Source of the DNA: Bryobacterales bacterium
GTDB taxonomy: Bacteria > Acidobacteriota > Terriglobia > Bryobacterales > UBA6623
Assembly: GCA_965219585.1 (NCBI GenBank)
Contig: CBDCOA010000003.1
Coordinates: forward strand, 1,642,593-1,706,592
Reading direction: 5' to 3'
Length of the DNA stretch: 64,000 nucleotides
The translations under genes were made by a program, and so were the position numbers. Below the pieces are notes generated by a model. It was not told the DNA's origin and searched no databases. It saw only the letters and a program-made list of their open reading frames with translations. The first letter of the stretch is position 1; each line of letters starts with the position of its first letter. This document shows positions 32,018 through 38,898 of this stretch, piece after piece.

Positions 32018-32290
32018 CTTCTCGCAGACGGATTCGAATAGGCGGATCACGAGCCATCTGCCTGAGCCTTCGCAGCTCGGCCAAGAGGCGGGTGATGGCC
32101 TCGATAGTCGAAAGTGTCCTACTACTCCGGCGGCACCCCGGCAGCGGCAGAAACCGATTATTCGGCACGACTTCCCGAATCCCCGCCCCCGGCGCGCGGA
32201 CGTCCCAGCCCAGATGCTTGTCGCGCGGCGCGCAGCCTACTGTAGACGCTCCACCTTTGGGCGGTCGCCACCATGACTGCGGATTCTGGC

Positions 32291-32366
32291 GAAAAGGGTC
32301 AGTAATCCGAAGGAAAAGGGTCAGCGTTCTGGCCGAAAAGAATCACTGTTCTGACGAAAAGGGTCA
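32291..32366 (+). repeat. IS21 right-end transposase-binding repeats (4 copies)
   Basis: GAAAAGGGTCA at 32291, 32313 and 32356; GAAAAGAATCA at 32335. Confidence 0.9.
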
Positions 32367-32462
32367 GTTCGGAGCGCAGCGACGCTGACGGATCCTAGTA
32401 TGCCATCAGGGAGGCACCTCCTTGCATGGATTCCCGGTTCCCGGGAAGATGGGACATCATCA

Positions 32463-33248
32463 TCATTCTGTTCCTCCTGTGTCCGCGGCGGCAGCGTCGA
32501 GTGGCCGGGGCTGCGGCTCTGCCTGTGTCAAATTTGGGCGGGCAGGCGGGCTCCCTGGCCAGCCTCCGTTGCGCGCCCAATGTTGCTCACACCGCAGCAA
32601 GTGCTGGCGCAGGTGCTGCCAGTACTGTGGCGGGTAGGTTTGCGGGGTGGCGGCGAGCACCTCTTCCAGCAGTGGCTGGAAGTAGTGCAGGCTGCGAATC
32701 GGCAGCCCGGCCGGCTGTGCGAGCAGTGTGATGGACTTGCGCGCGCAGCCGAGCAGGATGGCGTTGCGGGCGGTTTCCAGCGGGACTGCGGAACTGTGCC
32801 AGTGCCGCGCCAGGCACTCGTCAGCGGAGTTGAAGCGGCCCTGCACGCAGCTGGGCCGCAAGAAGGCCTGGCGCACGCTGGCGACATAGTTGGCGGCGGG
32901 ATCGGCCGCTGGGGCCAACTCGGAGTCGACCGCGGCATAGGGCCAGAAACGCGCACAGACGGTCAGCCGCGAGCGCCGGTGCTGGTTGGGAGCGGGCTCG
33001 ATCCGGCAGACCCCTTGGCGCACCAGTTCCTGCAAGCAGCGCCCCACAGTCGAGTGGCTCTTGGCCAGCTGGCGAGCCAGCTCGGCCCGCTCGAACTCGA
33101 GCGTGCCGGCCGGGCGCCGGGCTCGCAGACACACGTGCGCGAAGAGTTTGAAGGCCGCGTCGGAGAGCACTCCCAGCGCCCGCTCGAAACCCTCCCCGGC
33201 CGCGAAGAACGCACCGGCCGAGGGCTTGATGTGGAAACGCTCTCTCAT
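32463..33248 (-). CDS. IS21 third ORF: predicted winged HTH plus a DnaD-like C-terminal region
   Basis: ATGA overlap with the istB stop; LSDAAFKLFAHVC...ELARQLAKSHSTVGRCLQELVRQG; C-terminal AILLGCARK...IRSLHYFQPLLEEV. Domain calls are pattern-based. Confidence 0.75.
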   Translation of the reverse strand: MRERFHIKPSAGAFFAAGEGFERALGVLSDAAFKLFAHVCLRARRPAGTLEFERAELARQLAKSHSTVGRCLQELVRQGVCRIEPAPNQHRRSRLTVCARFWPYAAVDSELAPAADPAANYVASVRQAFLRPSCVQGRFNSADECLARHWHSSAVPLETARNAILLGCARKSITLLAQPAGLPIRSLHYFQPLLEEVLAATPQTYPPQYWQHLRQHLLRCEQHWARNGGWPGSPPARPNLTQAEPQPRPLDAAAADTGGTE

Positions 33249-34018
33249 GTCGCGTCCTCCTGCTGGCGATCTTCTTGCAGGCGTTGCGCGGCCTGCGTCT
33301 TACGCAGCGATTCCCCCTCCAGCGGGAAGCTGTGCGCCACGTGCACCAAGCGGTCCAGGATGCTGTCGGCCATGGTCGGATCGCCCATCTGCGCATGCCA
33401 GCTGGCGGGCGGCAGCTGGGAGGTCAGCACCGTCGAGCGCAGGTTGAAGCGGTCGTCGCAGATTTCCAGCAGGTCGCGCCGTTGGGAGTCGCTCAGCGGT
33501 GTCAGCGCGAAATCGTCCAGCACTAGCACGTCGGTGCGCGCCAGCCGGTCCAGCAGGCGCGGGAAGCTGCCGTCGGCGTGGGCCGCCTGCAGGTCCCGGA
33601 ACAGTTGCGTGCAACGCTTGTAGAGCGCGCTGTAGCCGTCCCGGCAGGCCTTGTGCGCCAAGGCGCAGGCCAGATACGTCTTGCCCACCCCGGAGGGGCC
33701 GGTCAGGATCACATTGTGCTTGTTGCGCACCCAGCGCGAATCGTGCGCCAGGCTGACGAAGCGCGACCGCTCCAGCCCGCGCGGGTGGCGGTAGTCGACG
33801 TCTTCCAGCGTCGCCTGCATGTGCAGCTTGGCCAGCGCCAGCCGCCGCGTCAAGGCGCGGCTCTGCTTCCAGCTGTGCTGGGAGTCGACCAGCAGGCCGA
33901 AGCGCTCCTCGAAGCTCAGCTCGGTCGCGCCCGGGTCGGCCAGCTGCTGGCGGAAGGCTTCCGCCATGCCGTTGAGGCGCAGTTGGTAGAGTTGTTCCAA
34001 AATCGGCTCGATCAACAT
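33245..34018 (-). CDS. istB: IS21 AAA+ helper ATPase IstB
   Basis: GPSGVGKT, VLVLDDF, LTSQLP..W, DSILDRLVH, GESLR; start trimmed to MLIEPILEQ. Confidence 0.97.
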   Translation of the reverse strand: MLIEPILEQLYQLRLNGMAEAFRQQLADPGATELSFEERFGLLVDSQHSWKQSRALTRRLALAKLHMQATLEDVDYRHPRGLERSRFVSLAHDSRWVRNKHNVILTGPSGVGKTYLACALAHKACRDGYSALYKRCTQLFRDLQAAHADGSFPRLLDRLARTDVLVLDDFALTPLSDSQRRDLLEICDDRFNLRSTVLTSQLPPASWHAQMGDPTMADSILDRLVHVAHSFPLEGESLRKTQAAQRLQEDRQQEDAT

Positions 34019-35607
34019 GCTGCGCCCTCCTTGGCCTGGCCGGCCCGCTGGGCCGCGGCGCGGAAATACTCCGGCCCGCGGATATTGCCGTGCTCGACCG
34101 GCGCTTGGGCCGAGACCTGCTCCGGCTCGCCGGGCTGGCTGTCCAGGCCGCGCTGCAAGATCTGCTTGACGCATTTGTAGCTGCACTCGCCGTGCGCCCG
34201 CGCGCGCTTGGCGGCCGCCTCCAAGCGCTGGCTACCGTAGTGCTTGCCGAGCCGGATAATCCCCAGGCTGGGCCGGTAGGCCTCGCTCGGGTGTGTCTTG
34301 GAATCCATCAGCTCGCGCACCAGCCGAGCCGTCTCCGGGCCGGCTTTTCCGGCCCACTCCACGATCCGTTCCGGCGGCCAGCCCAAGTGCTCGCGATGGG
34401 CCTTGGGGCGGTGCTGCTCGATGGTGCTGTAGCCGCCCTTGCCGCGCTCGCGGCGGTGCAGCGCCACCCGCTCGCCGCGATGGAACAACTCCACGCTGTG
34501 CGCGCTGAGGCGCACGTCGACCTGCTTGCGCAGCAGGCTGGCCGGGGCCGAGTAGTGCCACTTGCGCACCGTCACGTGATGGTCCACGTTGACCCGCGCC
34601 GTCAGCCATGCGGCGAATTCGTAGTCGCGCTCCGGCAAGGCCAGCAAAGCCGGCCGCTCCAGGCTGGCGAACACGCTCTGGCGCGAGCCCGCGCGCTTTT
34701 GGAACGGCTTGGCGTTGTAGGCCGCCAAGCCCTCCTGCAGCGCCTCGTTCAACTCTGCCAGGCTGCGGCAGCGGCGCTGCTGCCGCAACAGCGGCGTGAG
34801 CAACTCCCGCTCCACCCCCAGCACGGCCGCCTCCACGGCCGCTTTGTCACGCGGTTTGCCCGCTCGCGCCGGCAGCACCGCCGCGCCATAGTGTTGCGCC
34901 AGTTCGGCGTAGCTGCGGTTGACCTCCGGCTCGTAGCGGTCGGCCACGCGCACGGCCGCCTTCAAGTTGTCCGGCACGAACACGCGCGGCACCCCGCCAA
35001 AGAAGCGCAGCGCGTTCACATGCGCCCTCAGGAAACTCTCCAGGTCTTGGCTCCGGCAGGCCTCGGCATAGGTGTACGCGCTCAGCCCGAGCACGGCCAC
35101 GAAGATCTGAGCTTCCCAACTCCCCGACGGCTCGTACACCGTCGCCGTGTCGCCGGCGTAGTCAATGAAGAGCTGCTCGCCGGCCGTGTGATCGTGGTGC
35201 AGCACCACGTCCTGACTCGCGCGCCACTGCTTGTACAGCGCGCAGAACTGACTGTAGCTGTAGCTGCGGCCCGGCTCGCTCGCCGCGCAGTACTCGCTCC
35301 AGAGCTGCTCCAGCGTGACGCGCTTGAAGCGGCGCAACTGATCGTGCACATGTGCAAAGTCTGGCTGGCTGTGCCTCGCCGGCCCAGCGGCCGACGGGTA
35401 CAACTGTGCATACAACTCCGCATCGCTGGCGGCGGGACGGGCCAGCGGCCAGCCCAGCCCGGCTTGGCTGGCCCGTCCCAGCAAGCGCTGGATGGCCGAC
35501 TGGCTCACCCCGGTGGCGCGGGAGATCTCCCGCTGTGTGTGGCCTGCGTCATGGTGCAGGCGCAGGATTTCCTTGATTGCAAACATGGCGATTGGTAGCC
35601 TTGGCAT
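34012..35607 (-). CDS. istA: IS21 DDE transposase IstA
   Basis: IKEILRLH HTH, LFIDYAG, VPDNLKAAV, PRDKAAVEAAV, YSAP; AGGAGG RBS upstream. Confidence 0.97.
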   Translation of the reverse strand: MPRLPIAMFAIKEILRLHHDAGHTQREISRATGVSQSAIQRLLGRASQAGLGWPLARPAASDAELYAQLYPSAAGPARHSQPDFAHVHDQLRRFKRVTLEQLWSEYCAASEPGRSYSYSQFCALYKQWRASQDVVLHHDHTAGEQLFIDYAGDTATVYEPSGSWEAQIFVAVLGLSAYTYAEACRSQDLESFLRAHVNALRFFGGVPRVFVPDNLKAAVRVADRYEPEVNRSYAELAQHYGAAVLPARAGKPRDKAAVEAAVLGVERELLTPLLRQQRRCRSLAELNEALQEGLAAYNAKPFQKRAGSRQSVFASLERPALLALPERDYEFAAWLTARVNVDHHVTVRKWHYSAPASLLRKQVDVRLSAHSVELFHRGERVALHRRERGKGGYSTIEQHRPKAHREHLGWPPERIVEWAGKAGPETARLVRELMDSKTHPSEAYRPSLGIIRLGKHYGSQRLEAAAKRARAHGECSYKCVKQILQRGLDSQPGEPEQVSAQAPVEHGNIRGPEYFRAAAQRAGQAKEGAAC

Positions 35608-35699
35608 CGCGTGCCCTCCTGTCGCCTATGGGGACAGGAAGACACTTGCACCCGCCATCGTCGCCACGCTCTCGGCACTCGACCCCAAGCTCAGGCCGG

Positions 35700-35754
35700 T
35701 GACCCTTTTCAATCAGAACGGTGACCCTTTTCAATCAGAATCCTGATTCTTTTC
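35700..35754 (-). repeat. IS21 left-end repeats (3 copies, 22-bp period)
   Basis: + strand TGACCCTTTTC at 35700 and 35722, TGATTCTTTTC at 35744, each followed by AATCAGAA. Confidence 0.9.
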
Positions 35755-35959
35755 AATCAGAATACGCACCATGACCACTTCAATGCGGGTTTCGACTGGA
35801 CGGTAGACGATTCGATAGTCTCCCGATCACCAGCAATGGAGGCCTCGGAGCGGGAGTTGTAGCGGCTTGCCGCGGTCAGGCTCATCGCGAAGCTGCTCAA
35901 GAGCGGCATAGAGACGCCGCCGAACAGCCGGATCAATCGTCCTGATGGCCCGAGCGGCA

Positions 35960-36238
35960 CTAGCGCTGTACACCAGGGCCCAAGCCATCCCACACCTCCC
36001 CGTGACTCAGCAATCCTCCCGAAGCCGCCTCTTTCAAGCCGAGTTCGATCTGCCTCGAGAAGTCCCGGTCGCCCAGAATCTCCAACGTTTCGAGCAGCCC
36101 TTCGTATTCGGTCAAGGAAAGCAGCACTGCGACCGGGCGTCCGGATCGGGTAATGACCACATCTTCGCCGAGTTCCTCCACCTCGGCTAACAGCTTGGCG
36201 AGGTGCGTCTTGGCTTGCGACAGGGGCACCGCGGTCAT
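35960..36238 (-). CDS. Phd/YefM-family antitoxin
   Basis: VPLSQAKTHLAKLL...VVITRSGRPVAVLLSLTEYEGLLETLEIL; overlaps the toxin start. Confidence 0.93.
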   Translation of the reverse strand: MTAVPLSQAKTHLAKLLAEVEELGEDVVITRSGRPVAVLLSLTEYEGLLETLEILGDRDFSRQIELGLKEAASGGLLSHGEVWDGLGPGVQR

Positions 36239-36433: not shown

Positions 36434-38898
36434 CTACCTAGTAGCCATAAGTATGCTGGACAACGGCCCTCCGCTATCGGCCCAGCACGTAGTTTTTCCC
36501 GCTCTCAAACCCAATTTCGTGTCCCAATGTGGCTCCTGTCAACCGCTCGTATCCGCGCCACATGATCTGATTGCCCGGCTGCGGATCTTGCTTGCGCGCC
36601 CGGTAGCCTCCCAGCCGCGCCACTAGCCGCACCGCCAGTCCCAGCCGTTGCGGTGCGTCCAGCCCGAAGCGTTGCGCATAGTCGCCCAGAAAGGCCAGCT
36701 CCGCCTCGGTGAACAGCAACTCCGCAGCACAGTCGGGCACCTGCCTGCCCAGCAGCGTCATCACCATGATGCGCCAGGCGATCACCGCGTTGATGGCGAT
36801 CGCACGCTGCAGCCGCGCCGCCGTGCGCAACTCCAGCCCCTCAACCTGGCAGCCGGATTTGAGGACCCGGAAGAAGTCCTCCACCCGCCAGCGCTGCAGG
36901 TAGTAGCGCACCACCTGCGTCGCCGCTGCGGCGTCGCCCACAGCCAAACTGGTCAGCAGGTACCACTGCACCGGCTGCTCGCCCTGCGGCGGGTTCGTCT
37001 CCACGACATGCACCCCGCGCAGAGCGACCGGCTCGCCCTGCCCGCCGGTCGCCGGCAGCGTCAACTGGCGGTAGCGCAGCTCGCATGTTGCCAGCCGTTT
37101 CACCCGCTTCGGCCGGGCCTGCTTGCGGCTCGACTTCGGCCGCTGTGTCAGTCCCTCGATCTCCACCTCCAGCGTCCCGTCGGCCGCCCCGCCCGCCAGC
37201 TTCGCGAACAGCTTGCCGTCCGCGCCGCCCAGCCGCCGGTCGTGCTTGGCCCGCACCAGCACCTCCACCCGGCCGCTCCGCCGCTGCTCGTCGAACAATC
37301 CGAAAAAGTCCGCCTCGCGGTCCATCACCGCGATCACGCGCGTCCGCCGCGTCAGCCCCCGCGCCGCTGCGGCGATGTCCCGCCAGCCCTCGATCCAACG
37401 CTGCGACTTGCCCGCCGGCGGCGTCCCGAACCCGCACCGCAACACCCCCAGCGGCAGGCCCCGCGCAGTCGTCGCCAGCGTCAGGTGCAGGTGCAGCCCG
37501 CGCGTCTTGCTCGCCGTCTGGTTGCGCCCCACCACCTCCAAACCCGCGCAGCCCGGCCGCGTCGCGAAATTCAGGTCGCTGCCGTCTTGGATACACAGCA
37601 CCGTCTCCTGCTGCCGCATCCGCTCCACGCTCCGCTCGCGGTGCGGTGCCAAGATCCGCTCCGGCGTCACCTCCCCCTCCTCCGGCTGCTCCAAGAACCG
37701 GTAATAGCCGTCGATGGCCGCATTGTCCGCCCGCGGGTGCGCCGCCAGCCTCCGTCCCGGCACCTCCCCCAGCAACTCCGCGCTGCGCACCAGTCGTGTC
37801 GTCAACCGCTTGTCTCCCATCTGCGCACCCCCAAACTCCTGCGCCGCCCAACTGCTCGCAGCCAGACCCGCGCCCGCTTCCCGCTGCGCTGCCGCTGCCA
37901 CCGGCGGCACCCCCAGTTGCCGCCGCCAGTCCCGCCGCAACTCGTACATGTAGACCGTCTTCACACCGGCCGCGTACTGATTGTCGCGATCCTGCCGCCC
38001 GCGCCCCGCCGTCTGCCCCACCGCCACGAAATTCGCCGCCCGCAGGCTCGTCCCCAACTGCTCCTGCGCCACGAACGTCTCCACCAGCCACGGCTCGTAC
38101 CCATAGCGCTGCCGGAAATCCCCCGGCAGCCGCCGCAGCGCCCGCCCCAGCACGTGGCTGGCCAAGTTCTGACAGCCCCCCCGGATCAGAAACCGGCTCA
38201 GTCCCACCACCAGGTCCAGGTGCGCCCGCCGTTGCGCATCGCTCCACGCCATCCAGCGCTCCCGCGCCGCCAGCCGCAGGGCTGCCGCCGAGAACCCCAA
38301 CGCTGCCAGCCAGCCGTGCTCCGACCCCACCAGGTAGCGCATCTGCGCCCCCGCGAAGGTCGTCAATCCCTGGCGGTGCTCCCGCTCGATCAGTGTGTTC
38401 CAGACCCGCCGTTGCGCCGCCGCTGCCACCGGCTCCAGCGTCAGCCCCTGCACCAAAGCCAACTCGGCCGGCACCGTGGCCGCCAATTCCACCGCGCCCT
38501 CCGCCAGCAGCGCCGGCCGCCCGCTGTTGGGGATGCCTGCCCCAGCCGCCGGCAGCACGATCCGCGCGTCTCGCTCAGCCAGCGTACCCAGCGCCTTGAG
38601 ACAACCGGCCAGCTGCAGCCGCCCGCGCCGGTCACGGAAGCCGAACTCCTCGCAGATGCGCCGTCCGGCCGCTCGTCGGCTGGCGAATGCTTCTTGGGCG
38701 AGAATCGCACCGACGCGCTGGCGTGCCGCCGCGTCGGCGAGCGTACGCTGGATCTGGGACTGCTGCCTCACTTCCTATCGTGTAGCATGGCGGAGGTGGC
38801 GTTGTCCAGTGCTTTTCCAAGGAAAGTTCGGCCTACGCTTGGAAGACTGACGGACAGCGGGGCAGCGTTGCCCAGTGAACCTTATGGCTACTCGGTAG
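36434..38898 (-). mobile_element. Complete IS4-family (IS50/Tn5-like) element, 2465 bp
   Basis: 19-bp TIRs CTACCTAGTAGCCATAAGT / CTACCGAGTAGCCATAAGG; 8-bp TSD AGCTAGCG at 36426-36433 and 38899-38906. Confidence 0.95.
36474..38771 (-). CDS. IS4-family transposase with a ~280-aa N-terminal DUF4338/Mom-like domain
   Basis: WAAQEFGGAQMGDKRL, CIQDGSDL, VMDREADFF, YLQRWRVEDFFRVLK (YREK); N-domain LSRFLI...NLASHVLG...LVETFV...GTSLRAANFVAVGQTAG. Confidence 0.9.
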   Translation of the reverse strand: MRQQSQIQRTLADAAARQRVGAILAQEAFASRRAAGRRICEEFGFRDRRGRLQLAGCLKALGTLAERDARIVLPAAGAGIPNSGRPALLAEGAVELAATVPAELALVQGLTLEPVAAAAQRRVWNTLIEREHRQGLTTFAGAQMRYLVGSEHGWLAALGFSAAALRLAARERWMAWSDAQRRAHLDLVVGLSRFLIRGGCQNLASHVLGRALRRLPGDFRQRYGYEPWLVETFVAQEQLGTSLRAANFVAVGQTAGRGRQDRDNQYAAGVKTVYMYELRRDWRRQLGVPPVAAAAQREAGAGLAASSWAAQEFGGAQMGDKRLTTRLVRSAELLGEVPGRRLAAHPRADNAAIDGYYRFLEQPEEGEVTPERILAPHRERSVERMRQQETVLCIQDGSDLNFATRPGCAGLEVVGRNQTASKTRGLHLHLTLATTARGLPLGVLRCGFGTPPAGKSQRWIEGWRDIAAAARGLTRRTRVIAVMDREADFFGLFDEQRRSGRVEVLVRAKHDRRLGGADGKLFAKLAGGAADGTLEVEIEGLTQRPKSSRKQARPKRVKRLATCELRYRQLTLPATGGQGEPVALRGVHVVETNPPQGEQPVQWYLLTSLAVGDAAAATQVVRYYLQRWRVEDFFRVLKSGCQVEGLELRTAARLQRAIAINAVIAWRIMVMTLLGRQVPDCAAELLFTEAELAFLGDYAQRFGLDAPQRLGLAVRLVARLGGYRARKQDPQPGNQIMWRGYERLTGATLGHEIGFESGKNYVLGR

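Follow-up and report, generated by a model that had tools for sequence, protein, structure and literature searches.

ORF3, a third coupled gene inside an IS21-family element of a Bryobacterales genome: anatomy, distribution and possible role

Structural studies of IS21 insertion sequences (ISs) deal with IstA and IstB only (PMC11208146, PMC10122671, PMC12486865). What, then, is a third open reading frame doing inside the ends of an IS21-family element? The locus that raises this question lies in the genome of a Bryobacterales bacterium (assembly GCA_965219585.1), within a 64,000-nt stretch of contig CBDCOA010000003.1 (positions 1,642,593 to 1,706,592, forward strand), referred to here as the window. 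We show that it belongs to a large, apparently undescribed IS21 subgroup in which a third protein, termed ORF3, is co-translated after IstA and IstB. We hold the identity, architecture and evolution of the element and of the ORF3 family with high confidence; the best explanation of the gene overall is that it probably encodes a transposon accessory factor of this three-gene subgroup.

Anatomy and copies of the three-gene element

The element is a complete member of the IS21 family, measures 3,491 bp and occupies window positions 32278-35768 on the minus strand. Its termini are of the TG...CA type, the sequence reading TGCGGATTCTGG... from 32278 and ...CAGAATACGCA up to 35768, and a GAAAAGGGTCA-type repeat occurs three times at each end, at a spacing of ~22 bp. 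The component features are the following:

32278-35768, minus strand: whole IS21 element, delimited by TG...CA ends, inverted multi-repeat termini and a 7-bp duplication, and present in ~23 genome copies
32271-32277, no strand: left target-site duplication CCATGAC, the same heptamer standing immediately outside each end
35769-35775, no strand: right target-site duplication CCATGAC
35691-35768, minus strand: istA-side terminal inverted repeat with three 22-bp spaced repeats, TGACCCTTTTCAATCAGAA twice and TGATTCTTTTCAATCAGAA once (repeat search)
32278-32368, minus strand: ORF3-side terminal inverted repeat with three copies of GAAAAGGGTCAG (32291, 32313, 32356) and one degenerate copy (repeat search, sequence)
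34012-35607, minus strand: istA, a 531-aa DDE transposase with helix-turn-helix (HTH), rve and Mu-transposase C-like domains (NF033546, PF00665, PF22483)
33245-34018, minus strand: istB, a 257-aa AAA+ helper (PF01695, E = 3e-70; NF038214)
32463-33248, minus strand: ORF3, 261 aa, the long form of an 'istC-like' protein (ATGA overlap with the istB stop; family alignment; AlphaFold2 model)

IstA matched the IS21 transposase model NF033546 with 266 bits (E = 3.4e-79; cut-off 160) and IstB matched NF038214 with 243 bits (E = 4e-72; cut-off 200). The real start of istB is the ATG at 34018, where the istA stop is overlapped in the sequence ATGTTGA, with AAGGAGG upstream; at the following junction, ATGA (33248-33245) contains both the istB stop and the ORF3 start, with AGGAGG located 8 nt 5′ of ORF3. 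Stop and start codons overlap at both junctions, and the three genes are therefore translationally coupled. The first-pass annotation of this DNA had described a three-gene IS21 whose additional gene lies inside the terminal repeats and is coupled to istB. The istA and istB model matches, the ends and the duplication confirm the first part of that description, and the mapped ends together with the ATGA overlap confirm the second.

The features by which IS21 membership was assessed, namely IstA, a coupled IstB, TG/CA multi-repeat ends and a short duplication, are all present. The element accordingly resembles canonical members (IS21, IS5376) in its above-cut-off IstA and IstB model scores, its TG...CA multi-repeat ends, its 6-7 bp duplication and its istA-istB coupling, and differs from them in possessing a third coupled and conserved gene inside the ends and in its size of ~3.4-3.5 kb. 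It departs in this from the two-gene organisation of IS21 and is thus a variant, still a member of the family.

BLAST searches with the element identified ~23 copies in the 7.9-Mb, three-contig host genome, 11 of them uninterrupted and the remainder split by nested insertions of other ISs. Ten of the uninterrupted copies are flanked by their own duplications of 6-7 bp and one by a duplication of ~15 bp; no insertion-site consensus is evident in these GC-rich duplications. A full-length, stop-free ORF3 is retained in 20 genome copies. The locus is an intact, recently active IS21-family element. The usual copy measures 3,469 bp, and the window copy is ~0.8% diverged from the others and carries at its istA end an extra outermost 22-bp unit (35742-35768) found in none of the other uninterrupted copies, which begin 22 bp further inward. 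Because of this additional repeat unit and the divergence, the window copy appears to be either a variant with a duplicated end or a sub-lineage of its own. A separate 2,705-bp IS, present in ~30 identical copies (e.g. C3:1019304-1022011), has landed repeatedly in copies of the three-gene IS21, so that one IS lies nested within another.

Domains, distribution and evolution of the ORF3 family

Two domains were delimited in ORF3:

32958-33194, minus strand: winged helix-turn-helix (wHTH), aa 19-97, HTH_36/MarR-like (Pfam; Foldseek against PDB; weak PHROG 186/270 matches)
32565-32906, minus strand: five-helix domain at the C-terminus, aa 115-228, forming the family's conserved core (domain model; stand-alone homologs 3′ of istB)

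The long-form alignment comprises 41 sequences with identities down to 33% and contains 18 invariant residues. The AlphaFold2 model derived from it has a predicted local distance difference test score (pLDDT) of 85 and consists of a winged helix (aa 19-97), a five-helix domain (aa 117-226 in this model) and a disordered tail. HTH_36 was matched by 27 of the 41 members in Pfam (best E = 1.7e-7), and Foldseek aligned the winged helix to the wHTH domains of CodY and MarR proteins with a probability of 1.0 and target template-modelling (TM) scores of up to 0.65. The winged helix of the long form is thus well supported as a predicted DNA-binding-type domain. Two proposals of the first-pass annotation hold at this level: the N-terminal wHTH, on the strength of the HTH_36 and MarR/CodY matches, and a conserved C-terminal pattern, AI..G.ARK...SLxYFxxLLEEV, which corresponds to the most conserved stretch of the family alignment, AILLGCARK...SLHYF..LLEEV.

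The C-terminal domain folds confidently in isolation, with a pLDDT of 94 and a predicted TM-score of 0.87. No Pfam match to it was obtained in ORF3 or in the 41 members scanned, and Foldseek returned no significant fold match in the PDB (best E = 1.1), the top matches being AAA+ lid-like bundles at E ~1, a weak lead on which we do not rely. Sequence searches found no PDB relatives either, the best values being 0.049, confined to the wHTH, and 0.21 for the short form described below. RepB_primase_C gave sub-threshold matches in eight of 21 short-form members, again a weak lead that is not relied on. An origin of the domain by duplication of a segment of IstA or IstB was rejected after profile-profile comparison (hhalign, E = 0.14 to 0.65). 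Separately, three cysteines of ORF3, C40, C81 and C134 (33131-33129, 33008-33006 and 32849-32847), are invariant in all 41 long forms and unconserved in the short form; judged from the alignment, they could together form a site for metal binding or redox chemistry that spans both domains.

In other Acidobacteriota, the C-terminal domain alone constitutes a protein of 107-130 aa, again encoded by an ATGA-coupled gene after istB. The IS that houses this short form measures 3,393 bp, is multi-copy and has inverted repeats of its own; four copies were read, and at least two of them are bordered by target duplications of 5-6 bp. A profile search for the short form was saturated: of the 8,000 scored clusters (90% identity), 7,954 matched, which is a lower bound, all of them annotated as hypothetical and none with a Pfam domain. 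The long form was recovered in 841 clusters at 50% identity (E ≤ 1e-10). The commonest form of the family accordingly has no wHTH, the C-terminal domain being the whole protein. Both forms are patchily distributed and multi-copy (25 of 61 relatives; 17 of 301 Acidobacteriota genomes, in which copy number reaches 14), the pattern expected of ISs. Record titles indicate that the hosts are mostly metagenome-assembled genomes (MAGs) of Bryobacterales and other Acidobacteriota, with a few contigs binned to other phyla, and the element was also detected in sponge and marine metagenome runs. No homologs were found among 72,556 plasmid or 50,697 phage records. Some short-form IS21 elements carry extra genes upstream of istA (L125 G075:C3 1280-1726; L103 G039 474-977 and 1015-2121), which encode a Cys-rich protein of ~150 aa with the motif C..C...YCS..CR and, in one case, an additional protein that appears ParB-like by eye.

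The host genome itself contains two further paralogs of ORF3. One, 57% identical, occurs in six copies in another IS21 species. The other, 53-55% identical and present in 11 copies, forms the final gene of a 2,083-bp IS3-family element with 3-bp duplications, in which orfB matches NF033516 (E = 4e-80), the ORF3 homolog is ATGA-coupled to orfB and there is no IstB. One end of such an element falls within the window:

63785-64000, minus strand: end of the 2,083-bp IS3-family element with an ORF3 homolog, cut by the window end (C3:1706377-1708461; genome coordinates; NF033516)

A single genome therefore contains one accessory gene family in two unrelated IS families, and the notion that ORF3 is tied to IstB was rejected on account of the 11-copy paralog.

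The genomic context of the long form was surveyed at 80 loci from public genomes. Approximately 57 of these follow istA-istB, with IstA identity down to 26%, ~14 follow IS3 orfB, and ~7 come after a pair of tyrosine recombinases (463 and 791 aa) plus a 153-aa protein in a Tn554-like layout. Association with istAB is thus the prevailing arrangement of the long form and the arrangement of all short forms checked. In every context (IS21 long form, IS21 short form, IS3 and tyrosine-recombinase), the ORF3 start overlaps the preceding stop by ATGA. The tyrosine-recombinase element (L063, L073 and L078, public MAG contigs) additionally shows conserved downstream genes for a DUF7685/7686/7713 protein, a DUF6094 methyltransferase and a HigB/RelE-like toxin. 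Their presence suggests that this carrier is a larger integrative element with cargo.

A midpoint-rooted tree of the C-terminal domain, built on 111 columns, placed the short forms in a separate clade (support 98) and rendered the IS21-linked long forms paraphyletic, with the IS3-linked and recombinase-linked forms as nested clades (support 89 and 96, respectively). This topology indicates that linkage to IS21 is ancestral and that the IS3 and recombinase linkages are captures. It is the long form only that other transposons have captured, namely IS3-family and two-tyrosine-recombinase elements. Ratios of non-synonymous to synonymous substitution (dN/dS) of 0.10-0.49 in all four contexts show the ORF3 gene to be under purifying selection in each of them.

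Candidate roles for ORF3

We propose that ORF3 would act as a transposition accessory factor rather than as cargo. Its C-terminal domain would be the effector, a protein-protein interaction module that needs to be placed at DNA. The short form would be positioned at the transpososome or the target by IstB or IstA, and the long form by its own wHTH, making the latter autonomous and portable. Such autonomy would make it understandable that elements lacking IstB have taken up the long form only. Since the long form is maintained without IstA or IstB, its partner is more likely to be a host factor or a shared DNA-processing step than IstB. Candidate steps include the handling of a circular or replicated intermediate, gap repair, target choice and protection from a host activity. 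This adaptor mechanism, with the C-terminal domain as an interaction module brought to DNA, is offered as a tentative possibility and draws on architecture and distribution. A more elaborate version, which we regard as unlikely in its entirety, would make the protein 'IstC', the transposition machinery's third subunit in a very large IS21 clade of uncultured soil bacteria and symbionts; its five-helix domain would link the transpososome either with a host factor for replication or repair or with a particular state of the target DNA, and fusion to a wHTH of the replication-initiator type would have created a self-sufficient, portable module subsequently adopted by IS3-family and tyrosine-recombinase transposons.

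ORF3 might instead keep copy number in check, as a transcriptional repressor or an inhibitor of transposition encoded by the element itself, with the wHTH binding an operator within the element and the C-terminal domain oligomerising. The MarR/CodY-like fold of the wHTH is compatible with this function, the position of ORF3 as the last gene of the transposase operon would suit negative feedback, and host genomes tolerate at least 20 copies. However, the short form, devoid of a wHTH, is the larger and an equally conserved part of the family, which indicates that the C-terminal domain has a function of its own. Moreover, no conserved palindrome of operator type was noticed in the vicinity of istA or ORF3, and a specific operator would have to accompany the gene on its transfer to IS3 and recombinase elements, which have unrelated ends. 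Repression is therefore an improbable primary role.

Less probable still is the role suggested by the first-pass annotation, in which the C-terminal region was said to recall DnaD or phage replisome-organiser domains and ORF3 was proposed to form an initiator-loader pair with the DnaC-like IstB, loading a helicase or replicating circular or copy-out intermediates. Several observations are in line with it. IS3 and IS21 elements move via circular or junction intermediates that need host replication, IstB weakly matches DnaI/DnaC models, the wHTH is of the HTH_36 type, and the sub-threshold RepB_primase_C matches of the short forms point the same way. PHROG 186 and 270 ('DnaD-like helicase loader' and 'replication initiation protein') gave weak but recurrent matches, each in 13 of the 41 members (E = 5e-4 to 0.06) and all confined to the wHTH (aa 13-90). 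In a Foldseek search of viral models, phage proteins labelled 'replication initiator / replisome organizer' were aligned over the full length (E = 2e-5 to 5e-3); however, these alignments have TM-scores of ~0.3 and root mean square deviations of ~20 Å, from which it follows that only one domain superposes on the phage initiator models.

The C-terminal domain, in contrast, failed every test of DnaD similarity. The DnaB_2/DnaD hidden Markov model (HMM; PF07261) had no match in ORF3 (E ≤ 1), in the 41 members (E ≤ 0.1) or in the whole genome (E ≤ 10), and neither Phg_2220_C (PF09524) nor a DnaD C-terminal domain was matched by Pfam in ORF3 or the 41 members; an NCBIfam scan likewise lent the DnaD reading no support. 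For profile-profile comparison, alignments were built from relatives of SPP1 G38P that carry either the DnaD domain (A5) or the Phg_2220_C domain (A6). Against the former, hhalign gave E = 0.33 over eight columns for the ORF3 profile and nothing for the short-form profile (E = 0.7). Against the latter, the ORF3 profile produced 93 co-linear N-terminal columns ending at ORF3 residue 105, at a non-significant E of 0.05 and a probability of 1%. A Foldseek search of the PDB with the isolated C-terminal domain returned no DnaD entry among the matches listed (best 50). A DnaD-like C-terminal domain was therefore rejected, the HMM, profile-profile and fold tests having all failed, and the resemblance originally noted in this region is not upheld.

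Collectively, the N-terminal domain of ORF3 weakly resembles the kind used by phage and plasmid replication initiators and its C-terminal domain is not DnaD-like; we infer that ORF3 is not a DnaD-type initiator. The protein shares with SPP1 G38P and DnaD-domain replisome organisers a two-domain layout, a similar N-terminal wHTH and weak N-domain similarity in sequence and 3Di alphabet, and it differs from phage replisome organisers, with their PF09524 or PF07261 C-terminal domains, in having an unrelated C-terminal domain and no phage or plasmid homologs in the records searched. A dedicated initiator-loader pair is also unlikely because the ORF3 family is maintained, under purifying selection, in IS3-family and tyrosine-recombinase elements without IstB; the predominance of a form with no DNA-binding domain weakens it further, and a repeat search of the element disclosed no origin-like feature besides the ordinary terminal repeats.

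The least probable of these alternatives, that ORF3 is cargo or a selfish hitch-hiker (e.g. a host-directed regulator or an anti-defence factor) whose benefit is independent of transposition chemistry, would accord with its movement among three mechanistically different transposon types and with the IS-rich genomes from sponge and marine metagenomes among its hosts, but is countered by the ATGA coupling to the last mobility gene in all four contexts, by an istAB association persisting to the lowest IstA identities as deep co-divergence, and by the failure to find homologs in the plasmid and phage collections searched.

Certain considerations weigh against the accessory-factor interpretation and the framework in which it is placed. 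Capture by three transposon classes is also expected of a selfish or cargo gene. With midpoint rooting on 111 columns, the ancestral state may be either the short form or the long form, the latter with subsequent loss of the wHTH. Many hosts are MAGs, and the taxa of IS-bearing contigs outside Acidobacteriota are uncertain. Sponge metatranscriptome contigs 90-95% identical to istA, istB and ORF3 are of low depth and may reflect DNA carry-over; one of them, of 455 nt, spans the istB/ORF3 junction and is consistent with co-transcription of the two genes. Finally, no report of a third IS21 gene was found in the literature, and a curated three-ORF entry may nevertheless exist in ISfinder.

Insertion site, related systems and implications

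At the window locus, the IS interrupts a ParE/RelE-type toxin gene in its 3′ portion (35776-35988 and 32180-32277), and the frame of this gene is restored by in-silico excision of the element together with one copy of the duplication. The interrupted gene already holds an in-frame TGA, and an intact Phd/YefM antitoxin gene adjoins it (35960-36238). Further along, positions 36474-38771 (minus strand) encode a 765-aa protein in which a DruA/DUF4338 domain is fused to a complete Tn5-type DDE transposase (PF14236, PF14706, PF01609, PF02281).

Tn7 (TnsB/TnsC/TnsD-TniQ) and Tn5053 (TniA/TniB/TniQ) combine a transposase, an AAA+ protein and a target selector. The three-gene IS21 is similar in logic, with a transposase, an AAA+ regulator and, directly after the ATPase gene, a third protein that here bears a wHTH. 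Unlike these systems, ORF3 has no TniQ/TnsD match, such domains being absent from the Pfam matches of ORF3 and of the 41 long-form and 21 short-form members; its C-terminal domain is unrelated, its short form has no DNA-binding domain, and the family also occurs without an AAA+ partner. A second comparison is offered by small transposon-specific accessory proteins that are kept with mobility genes and whose role is undefined, as in the case of IS66 TnpA and TnpB, encoded before the transposase, and of Tn554 TnpC; the IS66 accessory genes are likewise translationally coupled (PMC3469429). ORF3 differs from these proteins in showing no sequence relation to them and in belonging to a family that crosses transposon families. 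The NCBIfam model for IS66 TnpA does match the element, at the HTH of IstA and not in ORF3.

The element is thus an IS21 variant carrying an uncharacterised and very abundant protein family, and the five-helix domain at the core of that family defines a novel family of protein domains that lacks a Pfam entry, a name and a solved relative. IS21 serves as a structural model for the control of a DDE transposase by an AAA+ ATPase and has been described as a two-protein system. A third protein under selection in thousands of IS21 lineages, and borrowed by two other transposon classes, suggests that a step or partner in transposition has gone unrecognised, which may concern target choice, the handling of intermediates or interaction with the host.

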